Positions 7,760 through 63,584 are shown, numbered from the stretch's first letter. The stretch: DNA of 64,000 bases from Candidatus Nomurabacteria bacterium (GCA_020632135.1 JACKGC010000001.1:308241-372240); one strand, 5' to 3'. Program-made: numbers and translations. Notes: generated by a model not told the origin, from the letters alone.

Positions 7760-8785
7760 ATGCCAGCTTTTTTCCACAATCGAATCATACAGATCATCGG
7801 CGCAGTTATTGGCGCCACGCTTTTACTCCTTATCCTCGCAGCGGTTTTCCTAGCCTCGTTGAATGATGCTAGAGACAGTACATATCGTGGAGAAAGTATG
7901 ATGTACGCACCAAGCGTATCGATGGATAGTGCAAACATGGTCGGTGGCTTTGGCGCTGATGGTGACGACATGATGATGAAAGAAATGGAGTCTTCGTATT
8001 ACCCCATGCCGATCCCCACTCCAGACAGCTACACTGCTGGACTCGAGACCTACGAGACTACGAGCTACGCCGTGACCGCAAAGACGAAAGATTTTGACGA
8101 TGTCTGTGATTCACTCACAGCACTCAAGGCCCAGACCGACATACACTTCAAGTCACTCAATGCGTCAACCAACAATTGCTATGCTACCTTTTACGCAGAG
8201 GAGGCAGCGGTGGAGGAAGTACTCGCCACGTTCACTCAGTATCGGAACATCGAAGTATCACGCGACACTTCATCAGTCACCCGACACAAACAGCGACTCG
8301 AAGGTCAGACATCGATCATGCAGCAGCAACTAGCACGTACGGAAAAGTCACTCGCTGCTGCCGAGGCACAGCTCGAGCGACTCAACGCACTCTTTACGTC
8401 GAGTAACGAGGTCACTAAACTCTCCGCGGAGGTGACTAATAGCCTGCGCTACATCGACCAGCTGACGCAACGAAAAATTAGCTACATCAGCCAACTCAAT
8501 AATCTCTATCAGCAAGCTGCTGATCTTGAAGAACGGATCAATGTCGTCCAGTTTGATGTGAGCATCAGTCGCGCTAACCCGATCTCAGTTGGGAAATACG
8601 ACCGACAGTGGGACAATGCATGGGAAGAACTTAAAGAACAGTACACTGAAACCCTCATCGGACTCACCGCTATGCTTGGCATCTTCCTCTTGTGGCTGGT
8701 ACGCCTTGTGGTCTACGCCCTGATCGTGATCGTTATCGTACGAGGCCTCTGGAAGTTCGTACAAGTACTTTGGAGTAGGTGGTAA
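7760..8785 (+). CDS. Membrane-anchored coiled-coil protein (DUF4349-like)
   Basis: N-terminal TM, a central region with heptad-like segments (QQQLARTEKSLAAAEAQLERL) and a C-terminal double TM (LTAMLGIFLLWLVRLVVYALIVIVIV). The family call is tentative. Confidence 0.45.
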   Translation: MPAFFHNRIIQIIGAVIGATLLLLILAAVFLASLNDARDSTYRGESMMYAPSVSMDSANMVGGFGADGDDMMMKEMESSYYPMPIPTPDSYTAGLETYETTSYAVTAKTKDFDDVCDSLTALKAQTDIHFKSLNASTNNCYATFYAEEAAVEEVLATFTQYRNIEVSRDTSSVTRHKQRLEGQTSIMQQQLARTEKSLAAAEAQLERLNALFTSSNEVTKLSAEVTNSLRYIDQLTQRKISYISQLNNLYQQAADLEERINVVQFDVSISRANPISVGKYDRQWDNAWEELKEQYTETLIGLTAMLGIFLLWLVRLVVYALIVIVIVRGLWKFVQVLWSRW

Positions 8786-9154: not shown

Positions 9155-10069
9155 TTACTTACTATGAAACTTCTTATGTACCTCACGCAAGTGTTTGTCG
9201 GTGACATGTGTGTACACCTGCGTGGTGTTGATACTTGCATGACCAAGAAGCGCCTGCACGCTGCGGATGTCGGCACCATTCTGCAGGAGATCAGTCGCAA
9301 AGCTGTGGCGAATTACGTGCGGTGTCACCTTGCGCGTGATACCCGCAGCCGCGGCGTACTTCTTGATAAGTCGTTGCACGGCACGCGGTTGAAGGCGAAG
9401 ATCACCGCCGTCATTTTGTTTCCGCCCATACCGCACGAACATCGCGTCATCCATATCTTTGCGGTGCTTTAGATATTCTTGGAGTGTGGAGCGTGCAGTA
9501 TCAGAAAGAAACACCACCCGCACTTTGTCACCTTTTCCGCGCACCGAAAATTCATCGCGACTCATATCAACATCATCGATCGAGAGGGAACAGAGCTCAG
9601 AGATACGAAGGCCAGTCGAGAAGAGTAGCTCAAGGATCGCACTGTCTCTTTTACCTTCAAGCGTTTTCGTATCCGGTGCTTTCATGAGTCGCTTCAGCTC
9701 TGCCGAAGAAATAAGATCGAGTGAACGCTCAGGTACTTTCGCCAGCTCGATCCGCTCGGGCGAGAGCGCTTCGATATCGCGCTTACGAAGGTACTTGAGA
9801 AATGCCCGCAGCGCAATGAGGTAGTAGTTTTGCGTGCGGCGTTTCATGGGTTCGCGTCGGCTGCCGACCTTCGTGCCCGGCTGACGATTGAGATGGAGGC
9901 GAAACTCACGCACTTGTTCCTCAGTGAGGTCGCTTGGTTTTTTGACTTTTGCAAAATCAAAAAACCGGCCGAGGTACCGATCATAGTTCTCCACCGTCTT
10001 CACTGACCTACCCCGTTCAATTTCGAGGTACTCCAAAAATTGGGATTTCAGTTTCACCAAGTCGTGCAT
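9155..10069 (-). CDS. Tyrosine site-specific recombinase, XerC/XerD family
   Basis: The C-terminal catalytic region is HVIRHSFATDLLQNGADIRSVQALLGHASINTTQVYTHV (R..H-R-H..Y pattern). An N-terminal SAM-like domain is also present. Confidence 0.85.
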   Translation of the reverse strand: MHDLVKLKSQFLEYLEIERGRSVKTVENYDRYLGRFFDFAKVKKPSDLTEEQVREFRLHLNRQPGTKVGSRREPMKRRTQNYYLIALRAFLKYLRKRDIEALSPERIELAKVPERSLDLISSAELKRLMKAPDTKTLEGKRDSAILELLFSTGLRISELCSLSIDDVDMSRDEFSVRGKGDKVRVVFLSDTARSTLQEYLKHRKDMDDAMFVRYGRKQNDGGDLRLQPRAVQRLIKKYAAAAGITRKVTPHVIRHSFATDLLQNGADIRSVQALLGHASINTTQVYTHVTDKHLREVHKKFHSK

Positions 10070-10663: not shown

Positions 10664-10683
10664 CGTTCATCAAGACGGACCAT

Positions 10684-10717
10684 TTGCCACTCCCGCCCCG
10701 GCGGGAGTTTGTTTTAC
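10684..10717 (+). terminator. Terminator hairpin, copy 1 of an exact 34-nt repeat
   Basis: ttgccactcccgccccggcgggagtttgttttac, with stem ctcccgcc/ggcgggag followed by a T-rich tract. It is identical to 11080-11113. Confidence 0.75.
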
Positions 10718-10812
10718 TGACATGTTACACGGGAGGGGAGAACGTACAAAACATTGACATTGCCAAGAGAAATCTGTACTAATAGCTTTGGACTAATACT
10801 CAGGAGATTGAG

Positions 10813-11079: not shown

Positions 11080-11113
11080 TTGCCACTCCCGCCCCGGCGG
11101 GAGTTTGTTTTAC
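11080..11113 (+). terminator. Terminator hairpin, copy 2 of the exact 34-nt repeat
   Basis: Identical in sequence to 10684-10717. Confidence 0.75.
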
Positions 11114-11120
11114 ACCTCTG

Positions 11121-11269
11121 TGAAACCAACCTCACTTTGGCGAGAGCATCCGCAGGCGCTGAGCCAGTCTTTCATTCCCTTAAAATTAAATAGGATGAAA
11201 GTCAGCGCTGAGGACGAAGTGAGATTCTGCTGAGAATCTCACGGTCGAGACAAGGTGAGGATGGTTTCA
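11121..11269. repeat. Intergenic foldback element E1 (multi-hairpin, closed by a 15-bp outer stem)
   Basis: Outer stem tgaaaccaacctcac (11121-11135) / gtgaggatggtttca (11255-11269) pairs 14/15. Inner hairpins include gtgagattc/gaatctcac. It carries the boxes GCATCCGCAGGCG and GAGGACG..GATTCT, which are shared with other elements. Confidence 0.6.
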
Positions 11270-11421
11270 TACACGGCTCAAAACGACTTGATTTTTACTC
11301 AAAATATGCTATTATCCTCCCAACCTAATTACAGGTTATTTATTCCGAATCGATGGTGCCACCGATGTTGCAAAACATATGAGTGGATCCACACGATCGA
11401 TTTCGTAACACAAAATACACT

Positions 11422-11730: not shown

Positions 11731-11764
11731 TTTTGCGGTATAGTGAAACGGAACTTCTGGTCTC

Positions 11765-11846
11765 GCTCATGCTTCCGTATTTGCGAGACTCAGCGGTTTC
11801 GGCTTCGCCTGCAAATGCTTCGCTACACAAACACGGAAGCATGAGC
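11765..11846. repeat. Intergenic foldback element E2
   Basis: Perfect 14-bp stem gctcatgcttccgt / acggaagcatgagc around a 54-nt interior. The reverse complement of the interior carries GCATTTGCAGGCG...GCTGAG, similar to E1. Confidence 0.6.
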
Positions 11847-11896
11847 TAGCGATGAACACTACACACAGAATCTTTTGAATTTTGTGTAGCGTTAAA

Positions 11897-11986
11897 AGGA
11901 GGGTGAAAGTCGCTGCGTAGGGAAACATCCGGAGCGACAATACCCGGAGCGAGGACGTTGATTCTCGCAGCGACTTTCACCCTCCT
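11897..11986. repeat. Intergenic foldback element A (21-bp perfect stem, 48-nt conserved loop)
   Basis: Stem aggagggtgaaagtcgctgcg (11897-11917) / cgcagcgactttcaccctcct (11966-11986). The loop tagggaaacatccggagcgacaatacccggagcgaggacgttgattct is 44/48 identical to the loop at 56086-56133. Confidence 0.75.
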
Positions 11987-14923: not shown

Positions 14924-14991
14924 CACTTTCGGTACACAAGGTAGTGAAAAACTCAGCCTTAGCCGACTAGAATCATGCGATACTAGTAGCA

Positions 14992-16806
14992 ATGGCCAGT
15001 TCACTCCATAAAGCTCCAACTCGTCTGCGTACGTACGCCAGCGACCTTGAAGCTGAACGAGCACGTCAGGGTAAACCGTCTAAGGCTACTCCTATACCTG
15101 CGCACGCGAGTGCACCAACACCAGAACCAATTGTTAAAAAACCGAAGTCGCTTCCAGGCCCGGCGATCAAAGTAGAATCGAAAGGACACTCAATCAAACC
15201 GGAATCAAAACGCAAGATCGAAGCGGCACCCCGTAAACACATCCCGATCCCTAGGATTGCTGCTGATGAATCAGTGCTTAAGCCGAAAGTGACCGCGCCA
15301 CCACCAAAGAAAATCGGTACGATCCCGGCTTTTCATGAACTAGAAAAGAAAGTCTCCAAGACACAAGAACATATCGTTGCAGAAGAGAGTAAGCAACCGA
15401 TCACTCCACGTCGAAAAAAGAAAGACAAAAAAGCTCGTCCACACCGACCAAACATCGGTTATGATGCAACGGTCATCACTGAAAAAAAGACCAATCGATT
15501 TAAACTGATACCGGCAATCATCGATGCGATCGTCGCGTGGGCAAAGTCTCTAAAACTCAAACACAAGAAAAAGAAAGCACCACAATATGTGGTCCCTGAA
15601 ACCCATCGCCGGAAGGGGGTGATCGAGCGTGCCACCACCAAGACCGGTTCGATCTTTACTGCTGACAACGAGACACTCAAGGAGCAGATCCGGCGGCGGC
15701 GGCAGAAGACCGATGCCCAAGCAAATGCTGAGACCACCTGGTCACCATTTACTGAAACAGTCTACCCACTTCTTGAAGCTCCAGAAGAGATACGTACTGA
15801 CCCGCAAAATGTTGCTGTTGAGTATAAGAAGATTGGCCAAACTCCAGCACCGGTGGTACCAGCGCCGATACCGACCAGCCCTGCACCTGCCCCCGAAGCA
15901 GTACCAGTACCTGAGCCGGCTCCAACTCCAACTCTCGAACCGATCACTACCGACCCTGTCACCGGCCTGACTGACGAAGAACGTTGGAGTCAGTCAGACA
16001 CTGAGCCACAAGCCACGGAGCCAACACTGACTCCTGAGATCGTCAGTTCAGAGCCGGCTCCAGTAGCACCAACACCACAGCCGCTTCCGGCCACTGCGGC
16101 GATCGCACCGATGCGCGGCAGTGGTATCAGCCGACTACAAAACGATACCAACACCCTCACCGTTATTCTCTTAGCGAGCGTACTTGGTGTCGTCGCAGTG
16201 ATCTTCGCCGGCTACCTACTCGTCAAACAATTTAGCGGTCCCGCCACTACCAACACACCCGTTGTAACAGTGACCACCAATCCGATCTTTGCAAACACAA
16301 CTGTAACAAGCGTCCCAATTGGTGCCAATCATATGAATGTGTTGCCAGTCATTATCAAGCAGGCAGTCTCTTCAAGTTCAGCTGGTATTGTGGAATTCAC
16401 CATTGTATCTGGGGTAGGTGATGAGCTCAGTGCACCATATCTATTTGACCTCCTTAGCTTCAAGACTGTCCCTATCTTTAAACAGTCTCTCACCATCATG
16501 CGTTTTGTCAGCGTCAATCATGGTACACCAGCCATCGCGGTACAGTTTGTCGACACAGATACTGTGCGCGGGGGATTCCTCAATTGGGAGGCAACCATGG
16601 CTAGAGACTTGCGCGCACTCTACGACATCCCAGCCGACATGACACTCGACTTCATAGATGACACTATCGCAGGTAAAGATGTGCGTGTCTTACGTGTCGA
16701 TGGTCGTAGCTGGCTGGTGTACGGCATCATTGGAGATAACACCGCTCTAATCGCACCAAATACCGCCACCTTCTCACAAGTCGTGGAACTTGGCTTACGC
16801 GAGTAG
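14992..16806 (+). CDS. Hypothetical single-pass membrane protein with a long Lys/Pro-rich N-terminal region
   Basis: 604 aa. It has an N-terminal RLRTYASDLE motif, about 390 aa of low complexity, one TM (LTVILLASVLGVVAVIFAGYLLV) and a C-terminal domain of about 190 aa. Confidence 0.55.
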   Translation: MASSLHKAPTRLRTYASDLEAERARQGKPSKATPIPAHASAPTPEPIVKKPKSLPGPAIKVESKGHSIKPESKRKIEAAPRKHIPIPRIAADESVLKPKVTAPPPKKIGTIPAFHELEKKVSKTQEHIVAEESKQPITPRRKKKDKKARPHRPNIGYDATVITEKKTNRFKLIPAIIDAIVAWAKSLKLKHKKKKAPQYVVPETHRRKGVIERATTKTGSIFTADNETLKEQIRRRRQKTDAQANAETTWSPFTETVYPLLEAPEEIRTDPQNVAVEYKKIGQTPAPVVPAPIPTSPAPAPEAVPVPEPAPTPTLEPITTDPVTGLTDEERWSQSDTEPQATEPTLTPEIVSSEPAPVAPTPQPLPATAAIAPMRGSGISRLQNDTNTLTVILLASVLGVVAVIFAGYLLVKQFSGPATTNTPVVTVTTNPIFANTTVTSVPIGANHMNVLPVIIKQAVSSSSAGIVEFTIVSGVGDELSAPYLFDLLSFKTVPIFKQSLTIMRFVSVNHGTPAIAVQFVDTDTVRGGFLNWEATMARDLRALYDIPADMTLDFIDDTIAGKDVRVLRVDGRSWLVYGIIGDNTALIAPNTATFSQVVELGLRE

Positions 16807-23312: not shown

Positions 23313-23388
23313 GGGAAGATATCACCATACACAACCTGTGTGCAAATAGATACCCGAAGACTCAGGTATGCTGTTATACTTACATTGT

Positions 23389-34747: not shown

Positions 34748-35527
34748 ATGAAAACACTTAAACTCCTCATCCCACACACCATCATCCTGGCGCTGCTCCT
34801 CCTGCCATTCTTAGCCGCTGCCCAAAATACCTATAAGCCACTAGTGGGTATTCCTGGGGTAAGTGGCGACCCTTCCACCCAAGGCTTCGATAGCTACATC
34901 AACGCCCTCTACGCGCTCTCAATCAGCATCGCGGCACTTCTTGCGGTCATCAAGATCGTGATCGCTGGTGTGAAGTGGATGATGACCGATATTGTTACCT
35001 CAAAAGGGGAAGCAAAAAAGGACATCCAAGCGTCACTAATTGGTTTGGTGATCGTGATAGCAGCCGTCCTTATCCTCACCGTCATCAACCCAAATCTGGT
35101 AAACGTGAATTTAAATATGCAGAAGATCGGTGTGACTGAGCAAGGAGGAGGAGGTGGAGGCTCTGGTTCAACACCAGTGTTAGATATGAATTATGTGGAG
35201 CAAGGTCAAACAACTGGCAATCTTGATACCGCAACCCTTTCCTCATCTGCCCCAACTGGTCAAGTGGAGGCTTTCTTTAAATGGTGCCACCAGCAAGGAA
35301 GAACACCTAAAAATATTGGAGGGGAGTGGCGCTGTATAGATTATGACAACCTGGAGAAAACAGTTATTTCTCAAGCTTATTGTTTAGATTCGTTGGGTGC
35401 ACAGTGTGATGTGGTTCGAAACACCCTTAAAACTAATTGCGAGGGTACCAAGAATGGTGTGTTCTTTGATGGGGAAATCGATAGTAATGGTTATAGAACA
35501 TATACTTGTATTCAGGATAGGTTTTAA
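34748..35527 (+). CDS. T4SS pilin-like (VirB2/TrbC-type) protein fused to a C-terminal Cys-rich domain
   Basis: Signal peptide ending AAAQ, then two hydrophobic helices separated by KGEAKKD (ALYALSISIAALLAVIKIVIAGVKWMM...IQASLIGLVIVIAAVLILTVI). A GGGGGGSGS linker and a ~105-aa domain with 6 Cys follow. Confidence 0.6.
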   Translation: MKTLKLLIPHTIILALLLLPFLAAAQNTYKPLVGIPGVSGDPSTQGFDSYINALYALSISIAALLAVIKIVIAGVKWMMTDIVTSKGEAKKDIQASLIGLVIVIAAVLILTVINPNLVNVNLNMQKIGVTEQGGGGGGSGSTPVLDMNYVEQGQTTGNLDTATLSSSAPTGQVEAFFKWCHQQGRTPKNIGGEWRCIDYDNLEKTVISQAYCLDSLGAQCDVVRNTLKTNCEGTKNGVFFDGEIDSNGYRTYTCIQDRF

Positions 35528-35530
35528 TTT

Positions 35531-35561
35531 AAAAAAACACCACACTCTGTGTGGTGTTTTT
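35531..35561. terminator. Bidirectional terminator hairpin
   Basis: aaaaaa acaccacac tct gtgtggtgt tttt, between the pilin gene (+) and yidC (-). Confidence 0.75.
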
Positions 35562-35577
35562 AAATTAGTCACTAATA

Positions 35578-36315: not shown

Positions 36316-36648
36316 CTACGTACTTTTCACCACTTCAGCAACCGCCGCTTCTATTACAGCTTGTGCCTCATGTCGTGAGAGTTGCACAAATGTTGGCTTT
36401 GCGAGTACGATCAACACTCCTTGAAACTTCAGTTCATCGAGTTGGCGGCGGAGCACAGCGTAGATACGCCGCCGAAGCAGGTTTCGCTTCACTGCACTCT
36501 TTGCCACCTTCTTACCTACCACCACCGCCACTTTTCTGGTTGGGTAGGGGGTAGTGATGAGGGTGAGGTATGTAGTGTGGTGGCGCACACCTTGTTTAAA
36601 AAAAGCGTCAAATGCAACTTGTGAGAGACGTTCTGACTTCTTAAACAT
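36316..36648 (-). CDS. rnpA: RNase P protein component
   Basis: FKKSERL start and the RNR motif KSAVKRNLLRRRI. Start at the internal ATG 36648, so the upstream hairpin is intergenic. Confidence 0.8.
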   Translation of the reverse strand: MFKKSERLSQVAFDAFFKQGVRHHTTYLTLITTPYPTRKVAVVVGKKVAKSAVKRNLLRRRIYAVLRRQLDELKFQGVLIVLAKPTFVQLSRHEAQAVIEAAVAEVVKST

Positions 36649-36674
36649 AGCGGCACTATAGCATTTAGGTAGGT

Positions 36675-36716
36675 AAAACAAAACCACCAAGCTAGATGGC
36701 TTGGTGGTTTTGTTTT
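36675..36716 (-). terminator. Hairpin between rpmH and rnpA (attenuator or terminator)
   Basis: Perfect 18-bp stem aaaacaaaaccaccaagc / gcttggtggttttgtttt with a 6-nt loop. Confidence 0.6.
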
Positions 36717-36722
36717 AGGGTA

Positions 36723-36872
36723 TTAGCCAGCCTTCTTCACTGTCAGCTGCGCACGGCCCTTGCGACGACGCGCTTGGAGGACTTTGCGCCCAGCAGCTGA
36801 TGCAGATCGCACCAAAAAGCCGTGGGTTGTGGCACGCTTTCGCTTACTTGGTTGGTAGGTTCGTTTTGACAT
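36723..36872 (-). CDS. rpmH: 50S ribosomal protein L34
   Basis: The minus-strand translation is [49 protein letters not shown] (49 aa), below the ORF-track cutoff. This is the canonical L34 sequence and position. Confidence 0.9.
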
Positions 36873-37218
36873 ACGTGGAATTTAATACCTGGGAACTATA
36901 CAGGAATATCTAAATAATTCAATAGGGGGAGAGCTTTGGACTCAGGCTGGGTGTAGGGTACCGACTACTCATCGGCAATACGCTCACTATTCTTAAAGAA
37001 GTGATTCGAACACACCCTGGTGTTTACCTACCAGTTTGAGCATCCAAGCCCCACAAAGGTTCAAAGTACGCCAGTTTAAGAGAAATGCACTTGTTCACAC
37101 TTTATACACAGTTGCATTCTCGGTTTTAAAAATGGAGTTGGAAATTCATTCTTTTCTGAAAAAGTTTACAGTTCTTTCGAGGGAGGTATAATGCTACTCA
37201 CGTACCGACTTAGTCACC
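36873..37218. other. rpmH-dnaA intergenic region: dnaA promoter and candidate oriC part 1
   Basis: DnaA-box-like TTATACACA (37102-37110) and TTGTTCACA (37091-37099). AT-rich stretch at 37120-37170. TATAAT at 37188-37193. Confidence 0.5.
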
Positions 37219-38604
37219 ATGAATTCCATCTCACACTCAGCTTCATCAAACAGCATCGTCCATACGGAACAAGTTGATGTAAAACAACTCTGGGATGATG
37301 CATTAGTGAAGATAGAACTCTCGATCACCACTGCCAACTTCAAAACATGGTTTCGCGACACCTACATCGTCTCACTTGAAGATGGTACCGCCACTATTGG
37401 CGTACCAAGTGTATTTGTGAAGGACTGGCTCCAGGATAAATTCCAGACCATGATCTTAAAGACTCTCCGCGACCTCACCCCACACGTGCGTAGTGTTGAG
37501 TATATGGTCGCCCAGCGTAATGAACGCAAACAGGAATCAACCAAGAACCAAACCGTCAACGCCGCACTCCCACTAGAGGATTACTACATTAATAAAAGTG
37601 ACAATCTTAATCCTAAGTACTCCTTCGATACGTTTGTGGTTGGCCCATACAACGCCCTTGCACACGCAGCAGCTAAGACTGTGAGTGAAAAACCAGGTAT
37701 CACGTACAATCCACTCTTTATCTACGGTAAGACCGGTCATGGTAAGACACACCTCATCCAAGCAGTGGGGAACCAGATCAAAAAGACTGGCAAGAAAGTG
37801 TTCTACGTCACAAGTGAGCGTTTTGCAGTGGACTACTTCAATGCACTCCAAAGTGGTAGTGCTAACAGCTTCAAAGATCGCTATCGTCAATATGATGTGC
37901 TCATCATGGACGATGTACAGTTCTTAGCTACCAAAGAGAAGACTCAAGAAGAACTCTTTCACCTCTTCAATGCCCTCCACGACAACAACAAGCAAATTGT
38001 CTTCTCGAGTGATCAACACCCAGCACTTTTAAATGGTATGGAGGAGCGATTACAGTCACGGTTTGCACAAGGAATGATCGTTGATCTACCAGCACCAGAC
38101 TTAGAATCACGCGCCGCAATTCTGCGCGCGAAAGCAGCACAGAATAGCATTACTCTCAATGAAGATGTGGTGCAACACCTCGCACAGAGTATTGAAGGAA
38201 ACGTTCGTGAACTTGAGGGAGCACTTAACACCATCATGTGTCAGTCACAACTCCTTGGCCGCGCCCTTTCGATCGATGAAGTGCGCACCATCATTAAAAA
38301 CAGCTCACGTCCACGTAAGACCCTTGCTATCACCGATGTGGTTGAAAAGGTGGCTCGCTACTACGACATTGATCAGGCAAGTATTTACGAAAAAACCCGT
38401 CGGAAAGAGGTGGTGAAACCGCGCCAGATCATTATGTACATCCTGCGCGAGGATTTCCAAGTATCATACCCAGCTATTGGTAAAAAATTGGGTGGTCGTG
38501 ACCACACCACCGTTATCCACTCGTGTGAGAAGATCAAAGAGGAATTAAAGAACAGTGGGGAACTCGAGGAGGAGATCACACAAGTCCGACTCCTTCTGAA
38601 ATAA
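37219..38604 (+). CDS. dnaA: Chromosomal replication initiator DnaA
   Basis: Walker A GKTGHGKTHL, Walker B LIMDDVQF, sensor VRELEGAL, and a C-terminal DNA-binding region ending GGRDHTTVIHSCEKI. Confidence 0.95.
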   Translation: MNSISHSASSNSIVHTEQVDVKQLWDDALVKIELSITTANFKTWFRDTYIVSLEDGTATIGVPSVFVKDWLQDKFQTMILKTLRDLTPHVRSVEYMVAQRNERKQESTKNQTVNAALPLEDYYINKSDNLNPKYSFDTFVVGPYNALAHAAAKTVSEKPGITYNPLFIYGKTGHGKTHLIQAVGNQIKKTGKKVFYVTSERFAVDYFNALQSGSANSFKDRYRQYDVLIMDDVQFLATKEKTQEELFHLFNALHDNNKQIVFSSDQHPALLNGMEERLQSRFAQGMIVDLPAPDLESRAAILRAKAAQNSITLNEDVVQHLAQSIEGNVRELEGALNTIMCQSQLLGRALSIDEVRTIIKNSSRPRKTLAITDVVEKVARYYDIDQASIYEKTRRKEVVKPRQIIMYILREDFQVSYPAIGKKLGGRDHTTVIHSCEKIKEELKNSGELEEEITQVRLLLK

Positions 38605-38627
38605 ACACCGCCAGAGCGGTGTTTTTT
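38603..38627 (+). terminator. dnaA terminator hairpin
   Basis: aaacaccgc caga gcggtgttt followed by ttt. Confidence 0.7.
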
Positions 38628-38928
38628 AAAGTTTTTTTGTTTGTGGAAAAGATCGGGGAGAGAAGTGTACAAGGCTAGAACATCCCGTTTATGTGTCTCC
38701 AACAACCGCTTGGTAGGGTATGGATAAAGCTGATTTTTATACACAATTACAGTTGTATTGTACTCAGTGTAAATAAGTTTCCCCAACCATACCCACATAA
38801 CTCCCAACCTAACTCACACTAACCGCACAAATACACACATAAATTTTCATTGTAGTACGCCATAGATTCGACTTTTGCACACTTCCACAGCACTAATAAT
38901 AGAGAGTAAAATAGATTACAATATAGAT
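38628..38928. other. dnaA-dnaN intergenic region: candidate oriC part 2
   Basis: Boxes within 1 mismatch of TTATCCACA or its complement: TGTGGAAAA (38642-38650), TATGGATAA (38719-38727) and TTATACACA (38737-38745). An AT-rich tract lies at 38890-38928. Confidence 0.55.
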
Positions 38929-40023
38929 ATGGAGATAACTATTCCACATGATAAGTTGGTTGAAGCACTCGAACTCATTGGACGCATTAGCACTAAACAT
39001 GTCACACTTCCGATACTACAGTGTATTCGTTTAGAAGCGAAAGGGACCAGTATCACCCTTCAGGCAACCAACTTAGAGATCAGTATGGAAGTGCTACTCA
39101 CTGGTACTGTAGTAGAAGAGGGGGTGGTAGCAGTTCCAGGTCAGATCTTCCTGCAGAGTATTCAGTTTGTTGCACAAAAAGATATTACTTTACGTACCGA
39201 GGATCAAGTTCTACTTCTTGAAACTTCGCATACCAATACTTCGATAAAGACATTCACCACTGATGAGTTTCCCACCCTTAAACAGCTTCAAGGTGAGGAA
39301 CTTAAACTCCAAGGAGCGATGTTTGCGAATGGTATTAAAGCGGTGGCATTTGCAGCCTCACAAACCTCAATTAAACCTGAGCTTGGGAGTGTGTTTATAC
39401 AGCAAAAGAAGGAACACTCTCTCACATTTGTGGCAACTGATTCGTTCCGTTTAATGGAGAAGACGGTCTCACAAAAAGGGTTAGTGTTCGATCAGTCGAT
39501 CATGATCCCACAAAAGAATGCCATTGAGTTAGCGCGGGTATGTGACACTGTGCGAGAGGACCCTGTGTTGGTGATGAGTGAGAATCAATGCGCTTTACGG
39601 TTCCCAACTGGTGTATATGTCTCATCACGACTAGTGGCTGGTAGTTTTCCAGATTACGTGCAGATCATTCCAAAAGAGTTTGTGACCCATGTAACAGTCC
39701 TAAAAGATGACCTTCTCCGCTCATTTAAGAAGACAAATATCTTTTTGAATAAGTTTCGTCAAGTCTCACTGATGGTGACCGACAAAAACCTTACCATATC
39801 ATCACAGAATAACGAGGTGGGGCACACAACCGATACAGTGCGAGCTCAGGTTGAAGGGGAAGAGTTGTCACTTAATTTCAATCAACAGTACATAATGGAC
39901 CCACTCACTCACGTGAATGATGATTCGGTGAAAATGAGTTTTGCTGGAATTGGCCGAGCGATGATCATACAAGGAGTGGCAGATAAGAGTTTGCGTTACT
40001 TAGTAATGCCAATGAATAAGTAA
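38929..40023 (+). CDS. dnaN: DNA polymerase III beta sliding clamp
   Basis: 365 aa with a three-domain clamp pattern (LELIGRISTKHVTLPILQCIRLEA...FVATDSFRL...MPMNK), in the position after dnaA. Start at the internal ATG 38929. Confidence 0.9.
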   Translation: MEITIPHDKLVEALELIGRISTKHVTLPILQCIRLEAKGTSITLQATNLEISMEVLLTGTVVEEGVVAVPGQIFLQSIQFVAQKDITLRTEDQVLLLETSHTNTSIKTFTTDEFPTLKQLQGEELKLQGAMFANGIKAVAFAASQTSIKPELGSVFIQQKKEHSLTFVATDSFRLMEKTVSQKGLVFDQSIMIPQKNAIELARVCDTVREDPVLVMSENQCALRFPTGVYVSSRLVAGSFPDYVQIIPKEFVTHVTVLKDDLLRSFKKTNIFLNKFRQVSLMVTDKNLTISSQNNEVGHTTDTVRAQVEGEELSLNFNQQYIMDPLTHVNDDSVKMSFAGIGRAMIIQGVADKSLRYLVMPMNK

Positions 40024-46691: not shown

Positions 46692-46719
46692 TTGACAAAA
46701 TTTTAAAGTATGCTAGTAT
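46692..46719 (+). promoter_or_regulatory. Sigma70-type promoter (TTGACA-N16-TAGTAT) with no downstream long ORF
   Basis: TTGACA at 46692-46697 and TAGTAT at 46714-46719. It points at the foldback element and the terminator at 47013-47043. Confidence 0.55.
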
Positions 46720-46776
46720 ATCTAACAATTGATGTTCTCCATCACACCAATGTGGGTGTGTGTTTATTTTGAGGCA

Positions 46777-46924
46777 ATTCCAGACGATAACTCTCTAAGC
46801 AACTTTGTATGCGTTGCGAGGGGTTCTATGGCACTCACCACTGAGTGAGAGCGCTGTATACTTACTTAGCGCGGCATGCGACTTTCAATGCGGAAGCTTT
46901 GCTTAGAGAGTTATATTCTGGAAT
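46777..46924. repeat. Intergenic foldback element E6 (26-bp closing stem with a 2-nt internal mismatch)
   Basis: Stem attccagacgataactctctaagcaa / ttgcttagagagttatattctggaat around a 96-nt interior containing ctcac..gtgag and gcgct..agcgc hairpins. Confidence 0.6.
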
Positions 46925-47012
46925 GAGCGTTGATGAGCTGACAGTAGCATAAAAAAAGCCACTGCGCTCTTGACCGAAAAACATTTCACTCTTGAAACTC
47001 AATAAAAAGTAA

Positions 47013-52458: not shown

Positions 52459-52514
52459 GGTGGGCGGACAAATAAAAAAACGGCGGATGCCGTTTTTTTA
52501 TTTGTCCGCCCACC
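52459..52514. terminator. Perfect 26-bp palindrome (bidirectional terminator) incorporating the 3' end of tRNA-Lys
   Basis: ggtgggcggacaaataaaaaaacggc ggat gccgtttttttatttgtccgcccacc. The right arm overlaps the tRNA acceptor 3' strand. Confidence 0.75.
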
Positions 52515-52577
52515 AGGGCTCGAACCTGGGACCCTCAGCTTAAAAGGCTGCTGCTCTACCGACTGAGCTATGGGCGG
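52505..52577 (-). tRNA. tRNA-Lys (anticodon UUU)
   Basis: Manual cloverleaf: acceptor CCGCCCA/TGGGCGG, D arm GCTC-AGTCGGTA-GAGC, anticodon loop CTTTTAA, T arm CCAGG-TTCGAGC-CCTGG, discriminator A. CCA is not encoded. Confidence 0.85.
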
Positions 52578-52616: not shown

Positions 52617-52697
52617 GTCCGCAGCCATTTAAGGCTTAAAAGGCGTTCGACAGTCTCCCAGACTGTCTCACCTCCACAGACTGAGCTATGGGCGGAG
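52617..52697 (-). pseudogene. Decayed tRNA-Lys-like copy
   Basis: The first 17 nt (CCGCCCATAGCTCAGTC) are identical to tRNA-Lys. It shares GCCTTTTAAGC and a GCGGACAAA 3' end. An inserted hairpin (GACAGTCT GGG AGACTGTC) is present, and there is no canonical T arm or 7-bp acceptor. Confidence 0.55.
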
Positions 52698-56018: not shown

Positions 56019-56069
56019 ATAAAATAAGTATAAGCTGAATTGTATTTTGCTGCACGTGTATGGTGAAAG

Positions 56070-56149
56070 AGGTGGTGCACTACAGTAGCGAAACATCCGC
56101 AGCGACCATACCCGGAGCGAGGACGTTGAGTCTCTGTAGTACACCACCT
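56070..56149. repeat. Intergenic foldback element B (16-bp stem, 48-nt conserved loop)
   Basis: Stem aggtggtgcactacag / ctgtagtacaccacct has one C-A pair, which is G-U on the minus strand. The loop tagcgaaacatccgcagcgaccatacccggagcgaggacgttgagtct is 44/48 identical to the loop of element A. Confidence 0.75.
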
Positions 56150-56165
56150 ATTTGCGGTAGTAACT

Positions 56166-56741
56166 CTACTGCATCTGCTTCAGGGCGTGGGTGACGAGTG
56201 AGTTTACGGTTGAGCTTTCATCTGCGATCTCAAGGATTGTTTCCCGGGCGGTGGTCATATCGTAACCTAAAGCAACTAATGCATCGATCGCGTCAGTCTG
56301 CACAGCGGTGAGGGCGTCGGTGCTGGCGCTGGCTGCGGCGGGAATATGCTCGAGTTTACTGTGTAAGTACTGGGTGATATTCTCAGCGGTCTTTTTACCG
56401 ATACCAGAGAGTTTGTGCAGGTACACCCCATCATTCTTCTGCGCTGCCTCCGCCAGGAGGGAGGGAGTGGCGTGGCAGAGTATCTGCAGTGCCGATTTCG
56501 GTCCTACCTTGGGTACGCCGAGTAAGAGTTCAAACATCGCAAGTTCGGTCTGGTGAGGGAAGCCATAGAGGTCAAGCGCGGTTTCGCGCACGGCAAGGTA
56601 GGTGTGGAGGGTGACCGTACTGCCTTCGGTAAAGTGGTTTTGAAGGGTGGGGCAGTTCACCAGGTAGCCAACGCCGCGTACGTTCACTACTAGCCAATTC
56701 TCGCCAATGTCATCGATCGTTCCCGTGAGGCTTCGTATCAT
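56166..56741 (-). CDS. ruvA: Holliday junction DNA helicase subunit RuvA
   Basis: MIRSLTGTI...VVNVRGVGYLV OB fold, HhH motifs (LLGVPKVGPKSAL, LSGIGKKTAE) and C-terminal domain III. Confidence 0.9.
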   Translation of the reverse strand: MIRSLTGTIDDIGENWLVVNVRGVGYLVNCPTLQNHFTEGSTVTLHTYLAVRETALDLYGFPHQTELAMFELLLGVPKVGPKSALQILCHATPSLLAEAAQKNDGVYLHKLSGIGKKTAENITQYLHSKLEHIPAAASASTDALTAVQTDAIDALVALGYDMTTARETILEIADESSTVNSLVTHALKQMQ

Positions 56742-56781
56742 AGTGTATGCATTGTACCTGAGATACGCTTCCTATCCAAAG

Positions 56782-56879
56782 CAATCAACCATAGGCCTGT
56801 TTTTCGCACACTCCGCTGTTGCGGACTCTCTCGAGCACGTAACCCCCGCGGATGCTCAAAACAGGCCTATGGTTGATTG
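56782..56879. repeat. Intergenic foldback element Y (22-bp perfect stem, 54-nt interior)
   Basis: Stem caatcaaccataggcctgtttt / aaaacaggcctatggttgattg. The reverse complement of the interior shares TCCGCGGGG and CGGAGYGTGYGA with element X. Confidence 0.7.
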
Positions 56880-63221: not shown

Positions 63222-63231
63222 TAAAAAGATC

Positions 63232-63320
63232 CATCCGTACCTGATGATGAGCGTCCGCGGGGACGGAGTGCTAAAGCTGCGCTGTGAACATCGGAGCGTG
63301 TGAAGAATCAGGTACGGATG
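63232..63320. repeat. Intergenic foldback element X (14-bp perfect stem, extendable to 19; 61-nt interior)
   Basis: Stem catccgtacctgat / atcaggtacggatg. The interior gatgagcgtccgcggggacggagtgctaaagctgcgctgtgaacatcggagcgtgtgaaga shares boxes with Y (reverse complement) and with A/B (GAACATCGGAGCG). Confidence 0.7.
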
Positions 63321-63584
63321 AATCTGAATAATTTAAAAACTATGTTTACCTTAACTACAAAAGATCTTTCAGAAACAGTCACTCTTAAGAATCTGCCGAC
63401 ACTACGTCAGACTTTCTTTGTCGGCTCAGTCGTTATCATGCTTGGGTATGTGCTCGAGGATGTCTACCCAATTACCCACTACTTGCCGTTGTTACCAGCG
63501 ATCGGCCTGATGGTCTCGGCGCTGACGGGCTTTTGTCCCATGGCGTACTTCTTGCAGAAGCTGCCATGGAACAAGGTGGAATAG
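63318..63584 (+). CDS. DUF2892 (YgaP-like) small membrane protein
   Basis: Two TM helices and the C-terminal motif LTGFCPMAYFL typical of DUF2892. The start is uncertain (63318 or 63342). Confidence 0.6.
   Translation: MNLNNLKTMFTLTTKDLSETVTLKNLPTLRQTFFVGSVVIMLGYVLEDVYPITHYLPLLPAIGLMVSALTGFCPMAYFLQKLPWNKVE

Follow-up and report, generated by a model that had tools for sequence, protein, structure and literature searches.

The stretch of DNA analysed here, 64,000 nt of the genome of Candidatus Nomurabacteria bacterium (GCA_020632135.1, JACKGC010000001.1:308241-372240; hereinafter, the window), contains two intergenic foldback elements, Y and X, which belong to one multicopy family of Patescibacteria (Candidate Phyla Radiation, CPR). 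According to the most probable reading, which is held with about even confidence, X and Y belong to a dispersed, non-autonomous type of foldback similar to ERIC and to miniature inverted-repeat transposable elements (MITEs), restricted to Patescibacteria, mobile now or until recently, and possessing a core that is recognised in the single-stranded form. A repeat element had been proposed in a first-pass annotation of the window, and this was judged the likeliest explanation. Compared with such repeats, the design of the family is inverted: the interior is invariant and the arms are variable.

Element Y (56782-56879, motif on the minus strand) is flanked by the -35 boxes of two divergent promoters, those of rpsT and ruvA. 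It has a 54-nt interior inside a perfect 22-bp stem (56782-56803 / 56858-56879). Read on the minus strand, Y consists of the 5' arm (56879-56858), the 5' box GAGCATCCGCGGGG (56857-56844), a variable apex (56843-56816), the 3' box CGGAGTGTGCGA (56815-56804) and the 3' arm (56803-56782). The minimum free energy (MFE) of its fold is -58.8 kcal/mol (z -8.3), and its score with covariance model R1 is 86.2 bits. Element X (63227-63325, plus strand) is located between acrB-like and YgaP-like/DUF2892 genes. Its 61-nt interior is enclosed in a perfect 14-bp stem (63232-63245 / 63307-63320), which can be lengthened to 19 bp (63227-63245 / 63307-63325) if a single mismatch is allowed. The parts of X are the 5' arm (63227-63245), GAT (63246-63248), the 5' box GAGCGTCCGCGGGG (63249-63262), the apex (63263-63286), the 3' box AACATCGGAGCGTGTGA (63287-63303), AGA (63304-63306) and the 3' arm (63307-63325); the MFE is -47.3 kcal/mol (z -5.9), and the R1 score is 88.1 bits. 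Both stems were measured as the first-pass annotation had described them.

In the whole window, exact matches of GAGCRTCCGCGGGG were found only at 63249-63262 (plus) and 56844-56857 (minus), and those of CGGAGYGTGYGA only at 63292-63303 (plus) and 56804-56815 (minus). The boxes of X and Y follow in identical order, the first adjoining the 5' arm and the second the 3' arm on the element's own strand. When the interior of X was aligned locally with that of Y in reverse complement, the score exceeded those of all but 3 of 2000 shuffles, and the alignment of both interiors in the same orientation was not significant in this control. The exact boxes and the reverse-complement alignment confirm the earlier claim of a relationship between the two foldbacks, whose shared interior is oppositely oriented. 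The wider population of strictly intergenic foldbacks on both strands, likewise proposed earlier, was recovered in a census of perfect stems of at least 14 bp with 25–130-nt interiors: five were found in the window against 0.03 expected, and all five are intergenic. To these should be added element B, a larger imperfect foldback (11108-11282) and a degenerate copy (36984-37088), which are described below. The shuffling control suggested earlier as a possible refutation was run and does not refute the shared boxes.

A chance likeness of two ordinary terminator hairpins has a negligible probability. The genome is rich in long perfect hairpins and X begins 6 nt past a stop codon, but the exact 14-mer and 12-mer boxes are confined to X and Y in the window, foldbacks are in excess, Y lies between divergent promoters, and the tail past the hairpin is scarcely enriched in T (3.7 T in 12 nt versus 3.1 in the background). 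About 35 further copies with a constant core, as well as covariation in the outer helix (P1), have already refuted this explanation.

These further copies were found in several scans. The two-box pattern GAGCRTCCGCGGGGN{15,45}CGGAGYGTG was used for a scan of 185,579 species genomes and gave matches at 30 loci, 21 of which are in 10 metagenome-assembled genomes (MAGs) of Patescibacteria named Parcubacteria, Paceibacteria/Paceibacterota, Nomurabacteria, Saccharibacteria or "Patescibacteria group". The matches at these 21 loci are 52–53 nt long, each within its own long stem. The nine non-CPR matches (high-GC Actinobacteria and others) have no long stem and either score 14–24 bits or are unreported by R1, compared with 59–105 bits for true CPR copies; they are chance matches. 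A metagenome scan, in which the inner helix P2 was left free in the pattern, gave further copies from Hainich groundwater and three JGI samples. Over all scans, the core length of the approximately 35 copies beyond X and Y is constant (51–53 nt), and at least 11 X/Y-type copies are present on five contigs of MAG H41-bin044_1 (hereinafter, H41). All true copies belong to Patescibacteria of several classes, and the family is not private to the genome of the window. When IMG/VR was scanned with both core patterns, the only match was one chance coding hit (L037). The Rfam 15 database at the gathering threshold recognised only tRNA-Lys in the whole window; at E ≤ 10 over Y, X and the region of element A, hairpin-shaped miRNA and snoRNA noise far under the threshold was obtained. 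A search of the literature on CPR repeats, RNA motifs and the core sequences found nothing relevant, and the X/Y family is apparently undescribed.

Copies of one genome share the apex sequence and proximal arms and have unrelated flanks. A consensus arm (TATCCCYTCATTACATATTTT) is common to the H41 copies and to copies in some other genomes. The arms of X, Y and six copies of MAG lewisrun bin.41 are unrelated, and arm changes are compensatory rather than consensus-preserving. The description of the stems as unrelated is right for X and Y but does not extend to the family, in which there is a P1 consensus and the proximal stem is common to copies at orthologous spacers. At least 10 copies are flanked by TA...TA; since this sequence is its own reverse complement, it could be merely two more stem pairs. 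When the arms of X, Y, A and B were considered as possible guides or spacers, no second match was found in the window or the fetched loci, nor for the Y and A arms in IMG/VR, all of which constitute a small search space. On the 26-kb contig JBDLTL010000014.1 (L027 6721-6977 and L029 7584-7686), two opposed X/Y-type copies are approximately 50 nt apart and a third is present; this clustering resembles that at 11762-11986 and 56066-56879 of the window.

The window contains one more X/Y copy, a degenerate one at 36984-37088 (minus strand; R1 20 bits, E 0.086), which lies in the rpmH-dnaA spacer beside a DnaA box. It is the positional orthologue of an intact H41 copy (L016 4469-4571). In the degenerate copy, P2 is changed from UCCG/CGGA to UUUG/CAGG with pairing kept, and proximal P1 is lost.

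The anatomy of the element was deduced from alignments A1 and A4 together with covariance model R1, read on the motif strand. P1 is 13–30 bp long. Next to it are tandem purine pairs, G1.A15' and A2.G14', followed by a helix of 3 bp (G3-Y13', C4-G12' and R5-U11') that includes two G.U pairs. Three nucleotides of the 3' strand, G-Y-G, then bulge out ahead of P2 (UCCG/CGGA). Past P2 there is a conserved internal loop, the 5' strand of which reads CGGGG and the 3' strand (A)ACAU. The apex of approximately 25 nt is loosely conserved and contains a semi-conserved GUGCYU; the GTGCT box pointed out earlier is indeed present in X and Y, but across the family it is only semi-conserved.

In 37 distinct copies, P1 positions are paired in 94.3% of cases, compared with 36–52% when the partner is slid, and double-change cells in P1 number 214 versus 59 ± 7 in shuffles. 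At core position 3, A occurs only where position 13' is U; at position 5, both G and A are found, the partner always being U. The G.U pairs of the core alternate with G-C or A-U and with no other pair. The change of C7 to U retains a wobble with G. In the L062 copy, GA/GA is replaced by GC/GC, that is, by Watson-Crick pairs. As for P2, its covariation in the metagenome scan, where P2 was free, did not go beyond C7-to-U wobbles and a number of variants with broken pairing; the sole double change is that of the degenerate window copy. This near-invariability suggests that the P2 sequence is read and does not serve pairing alone. A structured apical hairpin (P3) was rejected: some copies can pair in this region, with energies no better than those of shuffles (mean z +0.4). 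A kink-turn or box C/D structure was also rejected, because the bulge is 3 bp away from the G.A pairs and covariation supports pairs 3-13' and 5-11'.

Mismatches in P1 are strongly asymmetric between the strands. On the motif strand, 27 G.U versus 2 A.C were counted in 24 copies aligned without gaps. The larger set of 37 copies gave 49 versus 9, and the bias persists (6:0) where the element is antisense to the genes on both sides. The two G.U pairs of the core would likewise be A.C if read on the opposite strand. Neither symmetric mutation nor a cruciform can produce such an excess on one strand. The motif strand is thus selected to fold, as RNA or single-stranded DNA.

The same asymmetry bears on the explanation that the element is a DNA-level site, at which a folded strand or cruciform is bound by a recombinase, nucleoid protein or regulator, for instance as a site of recombination or inversion or as an insulator that absorbs supercoils between promoters. 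Both Y and B directly adjoin -35 hexamers, 10 of the 37 copies lie between divergent genes, the core is found reversed in place between relatives and includes the palindrome CCGCGG, and the long perfect stems suit cruciform extrusion. However, a cruciform would make no distinction between the strands, whereas the P1 mismatches and the G.U pairs of the core do. In addition, many copies are in 3' regions or between convergent genes, away from promoters, and no candidate binding protein is known. A site of this kind is considered quite improbable.

All copies are intergenic and have no fixed orientation. In the set of 37, eight are tandem sense, five tandem antisense, eight convergent and ten divergent relative to the neighbouring genes, the context of the remaining six being unknown. 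Many copies occupy the entire spacer, 5–25 nt from the stop codon. No conserved sequence was found outside the hairpin among the aligned copies, which indicates an element without a promoter of its own. Clustering of the neighbouring open reading frames (ORFs) at 21 loci revealed no recurrent protein family beyond synteny. Pairing often runs on past the shared arm consensus into unique flanks, for instance over 8 bp (L012) or 6 bp (L016). The T content past the element, given above, is a weak terminator signature, and several copies take the very place of a terminator present in relatives.

Two regulatory identities were tried for the element in this connection and rejected. An intrinsic terminator disagrees with the T content and with the divergent position of 10 of the 37 copies, yet some copies do occupy terminator positions. 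A riboswitch or other regulator of the 5' untranslated region disagrees with the four intergenic contexts, with reversed orientation at orthologous sites and with the location of Y upstream of the ruvA -35 box.

Comparison of orthologous spacers shows that the elements turn over. In the rpsT-ruvA spacer, X/Y-type elements in the same orientation are present in the window, L058 (RuvA 91% identical), L063 (80%) and L065 (82%), no element is present in L059 (which has a small hairpin only), L060 and L062, and a different foldback class occurs in L061 and L064. The four copies have homologous proximal arms with compensated changes (aggcctgtttt, aagcttgttgt, gggcttgtttc and aggcttatttc) and unrelated distal arms. 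In the ruvA-mur spacer, A/B-type elements are present in the window (B) and L058, an antisense X/Y-type element in L062, other classes in L061 and L064, and no element in L065. The interiors of B and the L058 copy are identical at 45 of 48 positions after reverse-complementing and at 27 of 52 otherwise, and the flanks and proximal arms of the two loci are colinear despite the reversed interior. In the acrB-ygaP spacer, X of the window is co-oriented with the genes, L060 has a reversed X/Y-type element with unrelated arms, and L061 has a plain terminator. Of two sites occupied by copies in H41, one corresponds to a plain bidirectional terminator of the window (35525-35567) and the other to window sequence lacking an element (23313-23367), and the H41 copy in the rpmH-dnaA spacer corresponds to the degenerate copy of the window. 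Elements are therefore gained, lost, replaced and reversed on the time scale that separates genera.

Further foldback classes were observed in L061 (~9860-9960) and L064 (~7830-7920) in the rpsT-ruvA spacer, and in L061 (~10680-10790) and L064 (~8590-8680) in the ruvA-mur spacer. One class in these spacers has the interior AGCGCUrCGCG...UUUUAGGGGAAU and stems of up to 29 bp, another has GA-ACAC-UUCC...GGAG-CAC-GUGU-GA, and a third has UUGAGUUCGC...GUGAGCGACAGG. Both spacers are hot spots for a guild of hairpin elements.

The principal alternative is a structured RNA with a function for the host, namely a multicopy cis- or trans-acting RNA whose irregular helix, with its tandem G.A, G.U pairs, 3-nt bulge and CGGGG/ACAU loop, docks a CPR protein (for instance, a ribonuclease, helicase or component of a ribonucleoprotein), with the long P1 serving as a structural clamp only. 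This explanation is possible, though on balance doubtful. Functional RNAs usually show the pattern seen here, with approximately 25 nearly invariant nucleotides in loops and short helices amid freely covarying helices; the conservation of G.U pairs is confined to one strand, with a 49:9 ratio of G.U to A.C mismatches. Both the A/B family and a third class from L061 (see below) have this inner architecture, and the core in the rpsT-ruvA spacer is kept across 80–91% RuvA identity with the spacer around it unalignable. On the other hand, no promoter travels with the element and nothing is conserved past the hairpin; the orientation relative to neighbours is random, and the five tandem-antisense copies still contain G.U rather than A.C. 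Since Y and its orthologues lie upstream of both divergent promoters, no full-length transcript would be expected. Close relatives without the element, or with another class at the same spacer, argue that no single copy is essential, and the distribution among CPR species is patchy.

The transcription problem is shared by a further candidate, a new class of small RNA that cleaves itself or is catalytic in some other way and is spread by a repeat element, like twister and hammerhead ribozymes. Multiple copies, indifference to context and an invariant core between variable helices are typical of self-cleaving ribozyme classes. The element resembles them in having an invariant loop-and-bulge core amid variable helices, in its multicopy and context-indifferent occurrence, and in its absence from Rfam 15. 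However, no support for a pseudoknot or tertiary contact was obtained, the apex is not significantly structured (the mean z given above), and the tandem G.A pairs are Watson-Crick pairs in the L062 copy. A ribozyme is accordingly regarded as very improbable.

A dispersed mobile element remains the preferred reading. It is indicated by the multicopy nature of the family, apex types shared within lineages, insertion at unrelated sites, the patchy CPR distribution, the near-identical core and the turnover at orthologous spacers. A strand-specific fold independent of context, combined with the absence of an own promoter, fits mobilisation through a single-stranded intermediate. In the proposed mechanism, the element would spread via such an intermediate of the motif strand, most likely single-stranded DNA, possibly RNA, and the conserved irregular helix would be the recognition site of an enzyme acting in trans, with selection acting along lineages of active copies. 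Most surviving copies may be those located apically or centrally in intergenic palindromes, frequently in the place of terminators, either through targeting or because this may be the sole insertion spot tolerated by a compact genome; such survival would make the distal arms locus-specific. The pairing into unique flanks, the copies at terminator sites and the long perfect palindromes elsewhere in these genomes (for example, at 52459-52514 of the window) fit this survival or targeting at palindromes. Two processes of a general kind are already known, repair templated by a hairpin and recombination between arms. The former (template switching) might keep or lengthen the arms as perfect palindromes, and inverted arms would allow the core to turn around in place. 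Once inserted, the element would add a very stable hairpin to any transcript crossing it.

Several observations weigh against this reading. No transposase or other mobilising gene turned up, although no search was aimed at one and 64 kb could not exclude it. The empty and filled spacers of the window and H41 are too diverged for the ends of the element or a target duplication to be defined. The interior, and not the termini, is most conserved, unlike in MITEs derived from DNA transposons, and the enrichment in T past the arms is weak overall. The rpsT-ruvA copy persists in four genomes in which the neighbouring spacer is unalignable, its boxes are approximately 87–88% identical between the window and L065, and changes in the proximal arms are compensated. 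Such persistence looks like selection in place and hence like a host function; it could also be explained by gene conversion between copies or by repeated insertion at one site. Finally, if the mismatches post-date insertion, G.U and A.C should be equally numerous under a purely selfish model.

A related and rather unlikely interpretation is that X/Y, more than a selfish repeat, represents a new functional nucleic-acid module of CPR, either a new class of protein-binding or catalytic RNA borne on a hairpin or the cis-site of an undescribed system that moves single-stranded DNA into the apices of host hairpins. Insertion of single-stranded DNA into the apex of a host hairpin, such as a terminator, would explain the unique perfect stem of every copy.

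The window also contains a sister family, A/B, with the same inner architecture as X/Y. Element A (11897-11986, plus strand) has a perfect 21-bp stem and the interior TAGGGAAACATCCGGAGCGACAATACCCGGAGCGAGGACGTTGATTCT, and scores 108.6 bits with covariance model R2. A diverged member with the motif on the minus strand (11762-11849; 52.8 bits, E 2e-10) was found by the same model and is opposed to A at a distance of 47 nt. Element B (56066-56153, plus strand; 95.8 bits) is located between the ruvA stop codon (56166) and the mur-ligase promoter TTCACC-17-TACAAT (56067-56039, minus strand), its motif strand being antisense to both genes. Thus, the window members are X, Y and the degenerate copy for the X/Y family, and A, B and 11762-11849 for A/B. 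The sequence GAAACAUYC..AGCGACMAURCCCGRAGCGAGGACGUUGA inside unrelated stems is common to A, B, L031 (H41) and the L058 copy. The fold of A/B comprises G.A/A.G, AAC/GUU, an A x C mismatch and UCC/GGA; the third core class, from L061, comprises GA, ACAC/GUGU, a CAC bulge and UUCC/GGAG. The resemblance of A/B to 5S rRNA or the sarcin-ricin loop, noticed by eye, was rejected: there is no match to Rfam 5S rRNA over A, Rfam having no separate model of the sarcin-ricin loop.

The box AACATC(C)GGAGCG, through which X had been compared with A/B, shows modest likeness as a string (25 of 2000 shuffles) and occupies non-equivalent structural positions in the two families. GAGCG-like boxes recur across all foldback classes. 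The earlier notion of a mosaic of short boxes is better described as at least two sister families with one structural plan.

The larger imperfect foldback of approximately 175 nt (11108-11282) lies upstream of rpsO (S15) and has several inner hairpins. It contains the X/Y-like 5' box GAGCATCCGCAGGC, as well as GAGGACGAAGTGAGATTCT, and the A/B-like GAGGACG..TGAGATTCT, and was matched by neither the R1 nor the R2 model. It is possibly related to both families and could be a composite element or an S15 leader.

Among known systems, the hairpin MITEs of the ERIC (IRU), Correia (NEMIS) and bcr1 types appear to be the closest analogues in behaviour. They are likewise approximately 100–150 bp long, non-coding, multicopy and strictly intergenic in either orientation; the whole element is one long hairpin, frequently with TA at both ends, substitutions are compensated, and presence varies among relatives. 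The X/Y family is indeed short, non-coding, multicopy and dispersed in intergenic regions, as MITEs are. In ERIC, Correia and bcr1 elements the terminal inverted repeats are the conserved part, whereas in X/Y the interior is nearly invariant across CPR classes and the arms differ between copies. X/Y also differs in its RNA-like core (tandem G.A, conserved G.U and a bulge), in being confined to Patescibacteria and in having no known autonomous partner.

REP and REPIN elements mobilised by RAYT (Y1 HUH) proteins, as well as IS200/IS605 ends, resemble X/Y as intergenic palindromic repeats of which one specific strand must fold. REP-like mobilisation in trans through single-stranded DNA would explain the strand-specific tolerance of G.T in any context. 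However, REPs are palindromes of 20–40 nt with a GTAG-type head and conserved stems, and REPINs are doublets, whereas X/Y has variable stems and a conserved interior. No REP head or doublet was seen in X/Y copies, and no RAYT gene was found among the scanned ORFs, to which the search was confined.

Insertion sequences that target palindrome centres (for instance, IS1397 and ISKpn1 in BIME loops) and group IIC introns at terminator hairpins insert at or beside existing intergenic hairpins, and insertion into a hairpin loop would give a unique host stem around a conserved insert. These elements are autonomous and approximately 1 kb or more in length, while apex targeting by X/Y is suggested by palindromic flanks and terminator-like positions. 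Hairpin-loop inversions in non-coding DNA of plastids and quasipalindrome template switching likewise flip a segment between arms, even among close relatives, and make imperfect palindromes perfect. Such mutations may befall any hairpin and do not define an element family; reversals and the perfect, locus-specific distal arms can be attributed to them, and the conserved core cannot. The attC site of integrons, with conserved R''/L''-L'/R' boxes at the hairpin base, a variable centre and a cassette context, was rejected: X/Y has the opposite design, a variable base and conserved centre, and core-gene neighbours.

TIGR-Tas systems, which occur in CPR among other hosts, share with X/Y variable palindromic stems, short motifs and G-A beside the stem, as does box C/D RNA (PMC12045711). 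TIGR units form tandem arrays beside a tas gene encoding a Nop domain, each unit containing two variable spacers of 8–12 nt (PMC12045711). X/Y copies, in contrast, are dispersed singly and have an invariant interior. Weak matches of X to C/D snoRNA-like Rfam models were obtained at the permissive threshold; box C/D RNAs have C (RUGAUGA) and D (CUGA) boxes that form a kink-turn with a 3-nt loop, but there is no asymmetric 3-nt loop ahead of the G.A pairs in X/Y, and UGAUGA is present in X only.

As for the genomic setting, X starts 6 nt downstream of the acrB-like stop codon (63221), and 17 nt separate its end from the YgaP-like/DUF2892 start codon that homology supports (63342). The right arm of X had been thought to cover the start codon of the latter gene, ATG 63318. 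This is probably not the case, because the L060 orthologue aligns from Met 63342 and not from 63318. The longest-ORF start GTG 63300 and ATG 63318 are both inside the X hairpin. Y is flanked by rpsT (S20, plus strand) and ruvA (minus strand); the RuvA protein of the window shows 100% identity to an NCBI entry named "Candidatus Nomurabacteria bacterium". The promoter-like sequence of ruvA, TGGATA-16-TACAAT (56778-56751, minus strand), begins directly past the 3' arm of Y, and an rpsT promoter, TTGCCT-17-TACAGT, recognised by eye and conserved in relatives, is on the other side, which places Y between two -35 boxes. The -10 box of ruvA ends approximately 9 nt before the ATG, suggesting a leaderless or near-leaderless mRNA; no Shine-Dalgarno sequence is visible at ruvA or at the YgaP-like gene.

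The window is syntenic with H41, with approximately 66–76% nucleotide identity over long aligned stretches. It includes the chromosomal origin region (36316-40023), which comprises rnpA (36316-36690) and rpmH (36723-36872) on the minus strand and, divergent from them, dnaA (37219-38604) and dnaN (38875-40023) on the plus strand; perfect DnaA boxes (TTATACACA) are at 37102-37110 and 38737-38745. X and Y are on the same side of the origin region in opposite orientations. A perfect 26-bp palindrome (52459-52484 / 52489-52514) overlaps the 3' end of tRNA-Lys (52504-52577, minus strand); one of its arms is an inverted copy of the tRNA acceptor end, and a like arrangement was seen in L061 (~14938-15038). 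An 18-nt direct repeat of the 5' part of this tRNA (GACTGAGCTATGGGCGGA) at 52679-52696, approximately 100 nt upstream, could be a remnant of a duplication or of integration. Another foldback, at 46720-46930, has perfect 16-bp arms (46787-46802 / 46899-46914) and a 96-nt interior holding further hairpins, with a promoter-like TTGACA...TAGTAT (~46692-46725) ahead of it. It has no Rfam match, belongs to neither the X/Y nor the A/B family, and may be an independent small RNA gene.

The tiny streamlined genomes of CPR are thought to be poor in repeats, and their non-coding elements are almost unstudied. In CPR MAGs, perfect foldbacks of approximately 100 bp can break or mislead assembly, the prediction of terminators and the calling of gene starts, of which ATG 63318 is an example. 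A core of approximately 55 nt that is nearly invariant from genomes named Saccharibacteria to those named Nomurabacteria must be recognised by something, either a mobilising enzyme or an RNA- or DNA-binding protein of the host. Occurring at a dozen or more copies per half-megabase and absent from Rfam, this core provides a handle for finding its partner. The combination of a conserved interior, locus-specific perfect arms, and reversal and replacement makes the family a tractable case of the birth, extension and turnover of hairpin repeats.

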